DNA of 64,000 bases, from positions 1,097-65,096 of the forward strand of contig JAFXXD010000024.1 of the NCBI GenBank assembly GCA_017542475.1. Direction: 5' to 3'. The DNA comes from Ruminococcus sp. Lineage in GTDB: Bacteria; Bacillota; Clostridia; Oscillospirales; Ruminococcaceae. Shown here one piece after another: positions 3,665-59,638 of this stretch. Every line of letters begins with the position of its first letter. Within the stretch, counting starts at the first letter, position 1. The notes under the pieces are model-generated. The model was given only the letters and a program-made list of their open reading frames with translations. It ran no database searches and was not told where the DNA came from. Made by a program: the position numbers and the translations under genes.

Positions 3665-3763
3665 GTACATTGCAATATAAATGCCCATAATTCTTAAATA
3701 TGCACAAGTTGAGCCGCTCTCTGTAATGCATTATGCATAATTAAGAGCTGTTAGACTTTAGCT

Positions 3764-3890
3764 TGCAGGGGCGGCGTTGCGCCGCCCGTCGTGCTAAATA
3801 CGCAATGCGGGCGCCCAAAGGGCGCCCCTGCAATGGCTGAATGAAATCAATTTGTTTATTGGCGGGACGTCGAGGACGCCGTCCCCTACA
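3764..3890. repeat. Cluster of 3 REP palindromes (two have a GCAG tag)
   Basis: GCAGGGGCGGCGTTGCGCCGCCCG; reverse complement GCAGGGGCGCCCTTTGGGCGCCCGC; reverse complement GTAGGGGACGGCGTCCTCGACGTCCCGCC. Confidence 0.8.
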
Positions 3891-3897
3891 TAAGCTG

Positions 3898-4060
3898 CCC
3901 GCCGAAAGCAGACTGCACCTTTTGTAAGAAGTGAGCGAGTTTACGAGCGGCAACGAAATTCGGGTTCAAAGGGACTGTGTCCCTTTGCAGGGTTCGGGGC
4001 AGAGCCCTTGCAGAATCCAAGGACAGCGTCCTTGGCGGATTCCAAAGGCAGAGCCTTTGG
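3898..4060 (+). repeat. Head-plus-hairpin element, copy 1 (4 modules)
   Basis: 63-nt head cccgccgaaagcagactg...gagcgagtttacgagcgg followed by 4 short hairpins; the element abuts the atpC stop. Confidence 0.8.
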
Positions 4061-4471
4061 TTATTTGAAGTGCTTCTGTGATATTTTCAGACGGTTCATC
4101 GCACGGTTCAGTGCTGCCTGCGTCTCGTAATACTCGCGTATGCTCTGCTTCTGGCGCATCTGCTCCTCCGCACGCTCGCGGGCCTCCTCGGCGCGCTTGA
4201 TGTCTATCTCCTCGGGCAGCTCGCACGAATCTGCCAGTATTACCGCCCTGTCGGGCATTATCTGTATGAAGCCCTCGGATATCGCGGCATAGTGCCACTC
4301 GCCGTCTATCATATATTTCAGCTCGCCTGTCGGGAGCGACGTTACAAGCGGCTCGTGTCCGGGAAGTATTCCGAGAAGTCCGTCTATCGCGGTTATGACA
4401 AGGTGCTCAACATCGCCCTTGAAGAATACTCTGTCCGTGGCGATTATCTCAAGGTAGAAGGTCTTTGCCAT
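4061..4471 (-). CDS. atpC: F1Fo ATP synthase subunit epsilon
   Basis: LGILPGHEPLV, ISEGFIQI, EEIDIKRAEEARERAE; last gene of the atp operon. Confidence 0.97.
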   Translation of the reverse strand: MAKTFYLEIIATDRVFFKGDVEHLVITAIDGLLGILPGHEPLVTSLPTGELKYMIDGEWHYAAISEGFIQIMPDRAVILADSCELPEEIDIKRAEEARERAEEQMRQKQSIREYYETQAALNRAMNRLKISQKHFK

Positions 4472-23354: not shown

Positions 23355-23400
23355 TCATTCCGCCCTGTGACCCGCAGTCACGGGGCGATTTTATTATATT

Positions 23401-23534
23401 GAATTCAGAATGCGGAAATCGGAATTCGGAATTAGAGAGCTCAGATGTAGGGGCGCATTCCGTGCGCCCGTTCAATGCGTAATTGAATGTATCGCCTTCG
23501 GCGATGATTCTAAAACGGGATATCGTCCCCTACG
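23401..23534. repeat. Degenerate heptamers plus a REP pair
   Basis: gaattca gaatgcg gaaatcg gaattcg, then GTAGGGGCGCATTCCGTGCGCCCG, a gtatcgccttcggcgat hairpin and a degenerate inverted REP. Confidence 0.65.
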
Positions 23535-23542
23535 CATTGTTA

Positions 23543-23705
23543 CCCGCCGAAAGCAGACTGTGCCGTTTGTACAGAGTGAGCGAGCTTGCGAGCGGACTCG
23601 TAGTTAGGGGTTCGGGGAGTGCGCTCCCCGACGGATTGTCAAGGCAGAGCCTTGACCAGAGTCCAGAGACAGAGTCTCTGGCAGGGTGTGGGACGGAGTC
23701 CCACA
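23543..23705 (+). repeat. Head-plus-hairpin element, copy 2 (4 modules)
   Basis: Same 63-nt head, then hairpins tcggggag-tgcg-ctccccga, gtcaagg-cagag-ccttgac, ccagaga-cagag-tctctgg and tgtggga-cggag-tcccaca. Confidence 0.8.
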
Positions 23706-28837: not shown

Positions 28838-28909
28838 TATGATAAGGGCTGCCTTTGGCAGTCCTTTTTTTGCGGGTTTCGGCGGACGGCGATGTTTTTG
28901 TAATTGCTA

Positions 28910-29046
28910 CCCGCCGAAAGCAGACTGCGCCGTTTGTACAGAGTGAGCGAGCTTGCGAGCGGGCTCGTAGTTAGGGGTCAGGGGAACGTGTTCCCCTGCA
29001 GGGTCTGGGGCGGCGCCCCAGCGGATTGTCAAGGCAGAGCCTTGAC
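28910..29046 (+). repeat. Head-plus-hairpin element, copy 3 (3 modules)
   Basis: Same 63-nt head, then caggggaa-cgtg-ttcccctg, ctgggg-cggcg-ccccag and gtcaagg-cagag-ccttgac. Confidence 0.8.
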
Positions 29047-48010: not shown

Positions 48011-48121
48011 TTTCTATCTCCCGCAAAGGGTGTAACCTAAAATCACTTTACACATTATACACTATGCCGCCGCATTTGTCAAGTACTTTTTTGATTTTTT
48101 TCAAGGGCAGAGCCCTTGTCT

Positions 48122-57411: not shown

Positions 57412-57526
57412 CCCGCCGAAAGCAGACTGTGTCTTTTGTACAGACTGAGCGAGCTTGCGAGCGGCAACGTAGTTAGGGGTCAGGGGAACTGTGTTCCCCT
57501 GCGGAGTCCAGAGGCAGCGCCTCTGG
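57412..57526 (+). repeat. Head-plus-hairpin element, copy 4 (2 modules)
   Basis: Same 63-nt head, then caggggaa-ctgtg-ttcccctg and ccagagg-cagcg-cctctgg; abuts the MMPL gene stop. Confidence 0.8.
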
Positions 57527-59638
57527 TTAGTGACTGAATACGTGCAGGTGCTTGCGCGAGGTGTGCCCGCTGTCCTTGGGCAGGAAGCCCGCGCTCGTCT
57601 TGCATATCACGCTGTCGAATACTATGAACATCGACGGCAGCACCGTTACTACGACCACCATCGAGATGAGAGCTCCGCGCGAGAGCAGTACGCACAGTGA
57701 GGATATCATTCCTATCTTCGAGTAGAGCGCCACTCCTACCGTAGCCGCGAAGAATCCGAGCGCCGAGGTGATGACCGAGCGTATCGAGGTCGCGAGCGCT
57801 ATTCCGACCGCTTCCTTCTTGTCCCTGCCGCCCGAACGCTCCGTGCGGTATCTCGTCGTCATAAGTATCGCGTAATCGACCGTCGCGCCGAGCTGTATCG
57901 TTCCGATAACGACCGAGGCTATGAACGGGAGCGAGGTGTTCGTGTAGTAGGAGATACCGAGGTTTATCATTATCGCGAGCTCTATCACCGCTACCAGTAT
58001 CACGGGGAGCGATACCGACTTGAAGGTGAAGGCAATGATGAGGAATATCGCCGCTATCGAGAGCACGCTGACCACCTTGAAGTCGCGGTTGGTGATGTCA
58101 ATGAGGTCCTTTGTCGCGGGAGCTTCGCCGATGAGCATACCGCTCGCGTCGTACTTCTGTACGATGTCGTTGAGCTGTGCCACCTGAGCGTTGACATCGT
58201 CGGAGGCTACCTCGTACTCGGAGCCTATCAGCATAAGCTGCTTGTTCTCGCTCTTGAGCTTGCTCCTTATCGAATCGGGTACGACCTCGTCGGGAATGGC
58301 GGGTCCTATCAGTGTATTGTAGCCGAGGGTGAACTGCACGCCGTCAACGCCGTCCATCTCATTGAGCATTGCCGTTGCTGTCTTGGCGTCCATATCGGAG
58401 TCAACGAGGAGGATATGCGTGCTGTTCATATGGTACTCTTCCTCGAGCTTCGTGTTCGCCGTTATGCTTGCGAGCTCCTTGGGGAGGGTGCTGTCGAGCT
58501 TGTAGTAAACATCATAGTGGAGATATCCGAACACCGCGGGTATCACCAGCACCACCGCAAGCGTGAGGAAGGCTCCCGAATGCTTGACGATGAATGACGA
58601 TGTCCTTGAAAAGCTCGGCATAAAGTCGCGGTGCGAGGTCTTTGCTATCGCCTTGTCGAATATGAGTATCATCGCGGGGAGCACCGTTATGCAGGCGATA
58701 ACGCCGCAGATAACGCCCTTTGCCATTACTATGCCGAGGTCAAGTCCGAGCGTGAAGCTCATAAAGCACATCGCGAGGAAGCCCGCGACCGTCGTGAACG
58801 AGCTGCTGACAACGGCTGTTACCGTGTTAGCTATCGCGTGAGCCATAGCCTCGACCTTGCTGTCGGGGAAGAGCTCCTGCTGCTCCTTGTAGCTGTGCCA
58901 CAGGAAGATGGAGTAGTCCATAGTCACGCCGAGCTGGAGCACCAGCGCCAGCGCCTGAGTGATGAAGGATATCTCGCCCATCGCGAAGTTTGTACCGAGG
59001 TTCCACGCTATTGCGATACCGATACTGAGCATAAAGAATATCGGTATGAGGAAGCTGTCCATAGTCAGCACGAGTACCGCGCTCGTGAGTATTACCGCGA
59101 TTATCGCGTAGATTACCGACTCGCTGTCGGAGAGGTGCTTCATATCGGCTGTAACAGCGCTCATACCGCTGATGAAGCACTGCTCGGAGGTTATCTCCCT
59201 CATCTCGTCGACAGCATTGAGCGTCCTGTCCGCGGAGGTAGACTCCTCGAAGAATACCGCCATTAATGTGGTGTCGCCCTTGTTGAAGAAGTCGCGCACC
59301 TTAGAGGGGAGTATCTCCTTCGGGACGTTTAAATCTGTGAGCGTCTCGTAGCAGACCACATTGGATACGCCGTCCACCTCCGATATCTTATCGGCGGTGT
59401 CGGCAATTTCCTTTTCGGTCATACCGTCCACCATCACGAACGAGAAGCCGCCCTGCCCGAACTCGTCTATCAGTATGTCCTGACCGACCATTGTGTTTAT
59501 GTCCTTTGGCAGGTATGAGAGTATGTCGTAGTTGACGCGTGTGTTGATATAGCCGAAAGCCGACGGTATCAGAAGCAGTATGCCTGCCGCCAGTATCAGC
59601 ACTCGGTGCTTTGCGATGAATTCACCGAACCTTAGCAT
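57527..59638 (-). CDS. MMPL/RND-family membrane transporter
   Basis: Two repeated TM bundles with LQLGVTMDYSIFL and IQLGATVDYAIL motifs. Confidence 0.92.
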   Translation of the reverse strand: MLRFGEFIAKHRVLILAAGILLLIPSAFGYINTRVNYDILSYLPKDINTMVGQDILIDEFGQGGFSFVMVDGMTEKEIADTADKISEVDGVSNVVCYETLTDLNVPKEILPSKVRDFFNKGDTTLMAVFFEESTSADRTLNAVDEMREITSEQCFISGMSAVTADMKHLSDSESVIYAIIAVILTSAVLVLTMDSFLIPIFFMLSIGIAIAWNLGTNFAMGEISFITQALALVLQLGVTMDYSIFLWHSYKEQQELFPDSKVEAMAHAIANTVTAVVSSSFTTVAGFLAMCFMSFTLGLDLGIVMAKGVICGVIACITVLPAMILIFDKAIAKTSHRDFMPSFSRTSSFIVKHSGAFLTLAVVLVIPAVFGYLHYDVYYKLDSTLPKELASITANTKLEEEYHMNSTHILLVDSDMDAKTATAMLNEMDGVDGVQFTLGYNTLIGPAIPDEVVPDSIRSKLKSENKQLMLIGSEYEVASDDVNAQVAQLNDIVQKYDASGMLIGEAPATKDLIDITNRDFKVVSVLSIAAIFLIIAFTFKSVSLPVILVAVIELAIMINLGISYYTNTSLPFIASVVIGTIQLGATVDYAILMTTRYRTERSGGRDKKEAVGIALATSIRSVITSALGFFAATVGVALYSKIGMISSLCVLLSRGALISMVVVVTVLPSMFIVFDSVICKTSAGFLPKDSGHTSRKHLHVFSH

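Follow-up and report, generated by a model that had tools for sequence, protein, structure and literature searches.

Headed arrays of hairpin modules, a probable family of mosaic DNA repeats in the Ruminococcus flavefaciens group

Scattered through the intergenic regions of a Ruminococcus genome is a repeat unit, here termed H1, in which a head of ∼65 nt is followed by a same-direction array of zero to seven short, GC-rich hairpin modules. These units are a repeated DNA whose presence varies from species to species and in some cases among strains; they lie in any intergenic context, and their arrays change length by slippage, that is, by deletions and duplications between the near-identical loops of neighboring modules. 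We place them, with reasonable confidence, among the mosaic DNA repeats of which REP/BIME and BOX are examples, and regard them as lineage-specific, non-coding, non-autonomous and either selfish or neutral. Among the genomes searched, only those of the Ruminococcus flavefaciens group contained the family. It is unpublished as far as could be found, a literature search having returned no paper on Ruminococcus repeats or headed arrays.

Head and hairpin modules of the H1 unit

The window, by which we mean the entire 64,000-nt stretch analyzed here (G000:C43:1097-65096; the assembly, G000, comprises 2.66 Mb in 57 contigs with 53% G+C), holds four H1 copies. All four are on the + strand, with heads that begin at 3898, 23543, 28910 and 57412 and align without indels; the numbers of modules that follow are four, four, three and two. 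In these points, as in the presence of a lone module at 48103-48119, our results agree with the preliminary description of this DNA. The arrays end at 4060, 23705, 29046 and 57526, and the first and last of them indeed abut a stop codon (TTA, a TAA on the reverse strand) at 4061 and 57527. With a 17-mer from the head and up to three mismatches allowed, four matches were obtained in the window against 0.21 expected, a number reached in none of 100 shuffles. The features are as follows.

3863-3889, − strand: GTAG-tagged REP hairpin in reverse orientation, ending 8 to 10 nt before the head of copy 1
3898-4060, + strand: H1 copy 1, head (∼3898-3965) plus four modules, the second of which is a half-module fused through the loss of 22 nt; directly abuts the atpC stop codon (TTA, 4061-4063)
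23543-23705, + strand: H1 copy 2, head plus four modules; orthologous site empty in four relatives; flanked by the upstream gene's terminator (23361-23387) and a few REPs on one side and a start codon (23734) on the other
28910-29046, + strand: H1 copy 3, head plus three modules; terminator (28844-28866) upstream, gene start (29117) downstream
48103-48119, + strand: lone, headless module of the commonest array-ending type, with a 7-bp stem and AGA loop
57412-57526, + strand: H1 copy 4, head plus two modules between two minus-strand genes; ends flush with a stop codon (TTA, 57527-57529)

A genome-wide search with a head profile, as the preliminary description had proposed, yielded 78 matches in G000, 57 of them full length (H1) and about 20 divergent. 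The divergent heads keep two conserved boxes (...GCGAAAGCAGACT... and ...GTGAGCGAGCTTGCGAGCG...), while their 5′ flanks and hairpins differ. Some of them, together with one GC-rich hairpin, lie directly next to the 3′ end of a tRNA gene encoded on the other strand; examples come from several species and include G000:C32 near 78318 and C36 near 11230, along with loci L055, L099, L052, L075 and L008.

Each module consists of a linker of 4 to 6 nt (CAGGGT, CGGGT, CGGATT or CGGAGT) and a 7- to 8-bp stem topped by an NGN triloop that is closed by a C:G pair. Across the 57 arrays we counted 184 triloop hairpins, a mean of 3.2 per array; note that these counts cover triloops only, so that first modules with 4-nt loops are slightly underrepresented. 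The closing pair is C:G in 176 of the 184, and the loop conforms to NGN in 157. Stem positions in these hairpins are paired in 98.1% of cases, compared with 66% (maximum, 70%) after shuffling of the 3′ arms, and this pairing extends over 58 distinct 7-bp stems; apart from the closing pair, each position is occupied by three or four types of Watson-Crick pair. The modules nevertheless belong to a limited set of recurring types. The hairpin next to the head is of a longer type, in which the loop is usually TGT. At the other end, CAAGGGC-AGA-GCCCTTG is the commonest last module, occupying that place in 15 of the 54 arrays for which a hairpin was scored. Within H1 arrays, all 74 modules that could be oriented face the same way as the head. 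At least 60 further modules lie free of any head, all of them intergenic. Where a stem carries a single mismatch, reading the top strand gives G-T more often than A-C (12 versus 3), an excess that fits selection on top-strand folding and also fits a strand-biased C-to-T mutation.

The head behaves differently. Most of its columns are at least 90% identical among 80 distinct heads from several species, a consensus fold of the same 80 heads by alifold reaches only about −3 kcal/mol, and mutual information picks up block variants of adjacent bases and no paired covariation. We therefore regard the head as conserved in sequence and reject a conserved head structure. Accordingly, the earlier notion that structure, not sequence, is under selection holds for the modules and fails for the head. 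Conservation this strong could mean that the head has a host function. Of the whole unit, only the end of the head carries G[T/A]AG, ahead of the first hairpin, and TTAC-like bases are favored just before its start, although these are indistinguishable from part of the element itself.

At the few junctions inspected by eye, the 5′ and 3′ ends of the arrays showed no complementarity that would amount to a terminal inverted repeat, nor were direct repeats indicative of a target duplication seen at the few junctions and empty sites examined in the same way. Two further readings were discarded. A coding function of the arrays was rejected on unit lengths alone, which are 21, 22 and 25 nt by hand count from our parse. 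A CRISPR array was rejected because the units differ from one another and are joined by linkers of 4 to 6 nt, as opposed to identical repeats with unique spacers of 25 to 50 nt.

Transcriptional context and strand of the arrays

Arrays are found in all arrangements of neighboring genes. Tandem genes flank the array in the same direction in 23 cases and in the opposite direction in 10; the neighbors are convergent in 11 cases and divergent in 10. Of 55 arrays, 22 oppose the gene downstream. Among 22 convergent cases, about 13 have an array that stops 0 to 13 nt from the opposing gene's stop codon. A strong promoter-like site (TTGnnn, 16 to 18 nt, TAnnnT) reading away from the array was seen in 17 of the 57, beginning inside the array or at most 90 nt past its tail and in most cases with an extended −10 element; on the opposite strand of the same stretches, the pattern was absent. 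A terminal ...CCCTTG supplies the TTG of the −35 box in a few arrays. We found no promoter or terminator belonging to the arrays themselves.

These data bear on the structured RNA already raised as an alternative in the preliminary description. Such a repeated RNA, be it a small RNA, a sponge for proteins or part of a UTR, would be read from the top strand and would work through its hairpins. The pairing kept through so many sequence changes is what such an RNA would show, as is the excess of G-T over A-C, although the latter can also stem from strand-biased C-to-T mutation; moreover, some copies must be cotranscribed with their neighbors, such as the one at 57412 within an operon and the one at 23543, which ends 28 nt before a start codon. 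However, operon copies such as 57412 would be transcribed as the reverse complement, and the 22 of 55 arrays noted above oppose the downstream gene. For the 17 arrays described above, the promoter of the next gene is located downstream of the array, no fold is conserved in the head, and a family of 57 copies with anywhere from zero to seven modules is unlike a scaffold RNA. At its gathering threshold, Rfam gave no hit on the window and seven other loci, and relaxing E to 10 added only chance matches to snoRNAs. Since the arrays are spread over all intergenic contexts, a dedicated RNA gene or 5′-UTR regulator is disfavored, and with no fixed transcriptional context to point to, we find the RNA reading unsupported and quite improbable. 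A mosaic DNA repeat remains the reading that we prefer, with effects on neighboring genes, such as an mRNA-stabilizing 3′ hairpin or a donated −35 box, being presumably secondary. Even so, by sitting flush with stop codons or −35 boxes, the arrays may affect the ends of mRNAs and the strength of promoters in a bacterium that is important for fiber degradation in the rumen.

All four window copies face the same way, as had been pointed out before; genome-wide, this common orientation is a bias, not a rule. Calling the locally G-rich (leading) strand from flanking windows with the element itself excluded, we found the head-to-array top strand on it for 38 of 45 arrays in G000 (p = 3e-6). Gene direction does not account for this, as only 67% of genes lie on the same strand compared with 71 to 85% of arrays (flanking windows of 5 to 40 kb), and the bias is visible both where the two flanking genes oppose the array (5/7) and in mixed contexts (15/18). 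Free modules, oriented by their loops, show no strand preference (31/63), whereas H2, a second conserved unit described below, matches the polarity of H1 (21/28). The bias was not reproduced in G010 (8/14, five copies coming from one larger repeat) or in 8-kb loci from other genomes (12/21), both small and noisy samples. It is solid for G000 and unproven for the family.

A strand preference of this type might be expected of a host-selected polar DNA signal, with the head as a directional binding site (comparable to Chi, to the motifs that orient FtsK/SpoIIIE or to a nucleoid-protein site) and the hairpins as accessories. Such a signal would be consistent with a head kept in sequence, not in structure, across copies and species; with 80 to 85% of G000 arrays being co-oriented with the G-rich strand independently of gene direction; and with the bias extending to H2 and sparing free modules. 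On the other hand, many species of the genus lack the family, its copy number ranges from 0 to 57, the copies do not occupy conserved sites, the bias was not reproduced in other genomes, and 57 sites would be sparse for an orienting signal. We consider a polar signal quite unlikely.

Spacers upstream of the heads (positions 23400-23540 of the window and also 3760-3890) are packed with GTAG REPs of several stem types and a CGGAATTCGGAAT-type repeat. In close relatives, the repeats in these spacers are exchanged for different families.

Turnover and distribution among strains and species

The suggestion of the preliminary description that H1 is a non-autonomous element gaining and losing modules is supported by differences between relatives, both in the presence of copies and in their length. 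G006, G010, G011 and G056 all lack the 23543 copy at the orthologous site, where in G010 only ∼25 nt separate the terminator from the start codon. In place of the 57412 copy, G011 and G056 have short unique spacers with the array missing, while G010 and G006 carry reverse-oriented modules and an H2 unit ending at the same stop codon. None of these was a clean empty site.

An example of variation between strains is given by the atpC site. Public metagenome contigs encoding an identical AtpC protein show it in four states: (i) the array as in the window; (ii) the window array plus one extra module, the window copy having lost 22 nt between two GGGCAGAGCCC repeats; (iii) the array missing, with GTAG REPs in its place; and (iv) a head with an H2 extension on its 5′ side and a single fused module. 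The first two states thus differ by one 22-nt module. Arrays contain half-modules that begin exactly at the loop, as well as fused modules, from which we conclude that arrays shrink and grow by events between near-identical loops. Across metagenome strains, three other sites were invariant, which argues that activity is low and change at the strain level slow. No new insertion with clean junctions was found; at every polymorphic site, members of several repeat families have replaced one another in a complex manner. Because repeats run exactly up to stop codons whatever fills the spacer, we read the turnover of these spacers as bounded by selection on the coding sequences.

A whole array, used as query, matched 12 of 18 genomes of the same genus, whereas 12 genomes representing other families of the order gave no match. 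The head was also searched for as an exact 20-mer, which is present in R. flavefaciens MC2020, MA2007 and SAb67 as well as many rumen Ruminococcus MAGs; its hits in GC-rich Actinobacteria we read as probable chance matches. Head copies number 57 in G000, at least 30 in G006 and 16 in G010, with fragments or none in most others. Collections of phages, plasmids and IMG/VR viral contigs gave no match to the arrays. Strain MC2020, which is in culture, carries 16 copies, making the question accessible to bench testing.

These properties have practical sides. Small mosaic repeats break metagenome assemblies, and several public contigs end within H1 arrays. Since the arrays differ between close species and between some strains, they could also serve as markers for strain typing. 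A stretch at G000:C20:320-1265 is 81% identical to the atpC/atpD region of the window; a paralogous ATP synthase operon would explain this, as would a contig of a related strain that was binned into the assembly.

Associated repeat families, candidate enzymes and known systems

H1 is one component of a larger mosaic. The second conserved unit, H2 (...CAAGCCTTTGAAAAGGCTTGAGCGAAACTTTCGG..., with a GGCTTGAGCGAAACTTTCGG core), is present in about 36 copies and is usually preceded by reverse-oriented modules; examples are seen at G000:C24 near 38830 and C57:201 and, in G010 and G006, at the site orthologous to window position 57412. About eight H2 copies lie 57 to 59 nt upstream of a head, which in four cases is a full-length H1. 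This arrangement invites the idea that H1 is the right half of a MITE-like element (reverse modules, H2, H1, forward modules) moved by a DDE transposase, with lone halves as deletion products; the reverse modules before H2 would then give the composite inverted module arrays at its two ends. But the eight composites are outnumbered by about 50 H1-only and 28 H2-only occurrences, the module arrays on the two sides are unequal in length and content, and the inspected junctions show no target duplication. No partner transposase was noticed in the course of the analysis. A MITE-like origin thus has little probability in our estimation, and we continue to treat H1 as a repeat in its own right.

GTAG-tagged REP families are another frequent component, with many in G000. 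In 6 of the 57 arrays, a reverse REP ends exactly 9 to 10 nt before the head, compared with ∼0.1 expected.

The Pfam domain Y1_Tnp (PF01797) was not detected in G000, G006 or G010. Using weak hits from relatives, however, tblastn located two single-copy RAYT-like HUH genes in G000.

G000:C4:52591-53109 (locus L162:1592-2113): RAYT-like gene 1, between remB/recF and gyrB
G000:C57:29304-29831 (locus L163:1505-2053): RAYT-like gene 2, just before thrS

Both match the NCBIfam model REP_Tyr_transpos (NF047646), with E = 7e-20 and 2e-11 and scores below its cut-off, and in both, the HUH motif and the tyrosine are intact when aligned with ISDra2 TnpA. Inside its ORF and in frame, each gene contains two REPs of a single GTAG family that are inverted relative to each other, the two families having 77 and 27 genomic copies; the REP at 3863-3889 in the window is of the type found inside the gene on contig C4. 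Orthologues in other Ruminococcus species have other REP types at the same two places, a layout unlike the usual REPtron. No H1 array flanks either gene. Carrying GTAG REPs and not H1 modules, the two genes are tied to the REPs and not to the headed arrays. Co-occurrence does not speak for a connection with H1 either: among 18 genomes, seven have both arrays and a RAYT-like gene, five the array only, two the gene only and four neither, which is not significant, and G011 (99% complete) has modules and lacks the gene. The RAYT-like HUH proteins are candidates, the only trans-acting enzymes of this sort that we saw, and their link to the arrays is unproven. The idea of an HUH nuclease acting on ssDNA hairpins, put forward in the preliminary description, has in its favor these two genes and the strand bias of G000; against it stand the type of REP that the genes carry, the untidy co-occurrence and the failure to reproduce the bias elsewhere.

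As to how H1 might spread, we infer that copies move as DNA, most likely via single-stranded hairpin intermediates at the replication fork, and presumably with the help of a trans-acting enzyme, for which the RAYT-like HUH proteins are the sole candidates in sight. The potential to form hairpins would be kept because the mechanism of spreading or maintenance, or tolerance by the host, needs hairpins. Spread through single-stranded hairpins by an HUH enzyme is a tentative proposal, one that we would not put forward as the expected outcome. Still more doubtful is a stronger version, in which the arrays would represent a new class of replication-polarized single-strand hairpin elements: a trans-acting enzyme, be it one of the REP-carrying RAYT-like HUH proteins or another, would recognize the head and copy or move the unit on the lagging-strand template, the hairpin array being built and trimmed in the process. 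If true, a Gram-positive gut anaerobe would join the hosts of REP/RAYT-type biology, with a different substrate architecture. To our knowledge, REP/RAYT-type repeat dynamics have been studied almost only in Proteobacteria, and with its arrays, GTAG REPs and REP-carrying RAYT-like genes, R. flavefaciens is a candidate Gram-positive model for such dynamics.

The closest analogues of H1 are BIMEs and the pneumococcal BOX element, although H1 has neither the GT[AG]G tags and alternating orientation of the former nor the terminal inverted repeats of the latter. H1 arrays share several traits with REPs and BIMEs and their RAYTs (PMC2817692, PMC3733652, PMC6006769): the building blocks are short, GC-rich palindromes that lie outside genes in high copy, conserved motifs that are not palindromic connect them into mosaic clusters, and a genome contains several such families. 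In both cases, close strains differ from each other, copies directly follow stop codons, and single-copy RAYT-type HUH genes are present in the same genome. The H1 modules also fall within the range of 20- to 40-nt extragenic imperfect palindromes in high copy by which REPs are recognized. In contrast with REPs, which carry the GT[AG]G (or CGTC) tag at the foot of the palindrome and alternate in orientation within BIMEs, H1 modules are untagged, have CRGRNT linkers and are all codirectional within an array. Every array, moreover, starts from one 65-nt head, and the host is a Gram-positive rumen Ruminococcus. In a REPtron, the cognate RAYT is flanked by the same repeats, whereas the RAYT-like genes here have no H1 units at their sides.

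The BOX element of Streptococcus pneumoniae (PMC3049150) is composed of boxA, a variable number of boxB and boxC. With it, H1 shares a first module that is fixed, an internal number of modules that varies from copy to copy, a preference for a certain module at the end, an intergenic copy number of about 100 in a Firmicute host and the lack of coding capacity; the pattern of fixed ends around a variable interior is seen here as a fixed head with zero to seven modules. The two differ in that BOX modules measure 45 to 59 nt compared with 21 to 25 nt for the H1 hairpin modules, their sequences are unrelated, and boxA and boxC pair as terminal inverted repeats, whereas the H1 head and tail are not complementary. 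In addition, the first H1 hairpin is of the longer type with its usual TGT loop, and the preferred last module closes no more than the 15 of 54 arrays given above.

A third group, the PATEs derived from IS200/IS605 and the REPINs, moves as single strands at the replication fork (PMC6006769). H1 arrays resemble these in being hairpin based, in showing no target duplication and no terminal inverted repeats and, for G000 only, in an orientation bias relative to replication. PATEs go with a Y1 HUH transposase of the IS type and have left-end and right-end hairpins with a fixed cleavage tetranucleotide. For H1, no IS200/IS605 TnpA or TnpB partner was identified and no pair of end hairpins is defined, and the arrays vary in length.

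Two further repeats are associated with the arrays. The first is a three-hairpin unit of ∼62 nt that is nested in module loops in either orientation, as seen at G000:C51 near 19219, C57 near 9221 and, on the reverse strand, C4 near 29719. Its 5′ half recurs at three more intergenic sites (two on C21 and one on C26) in a different setting; no IS was found at its other copies that might indicate its source. The second is a multicopy stretch of at least 110 nt (...GCCGTCCTTCGACGGCTG..AAACGGCATAGTTTT) that precedes some heads, often at contig ends: C14:77, C14:47132, C15:26381, C2:88 and C8:1333904 in G010, and C32:2642, C4, C16 and C51 in G000. The stretch is therefore part of a larger repeat. 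An rRNA operon as its context was rejected, as there is no rRNA nearby and the upstream gene encodes a surface protein; on C32, the stretch follows the gene of an LPXTG-type surface protein.
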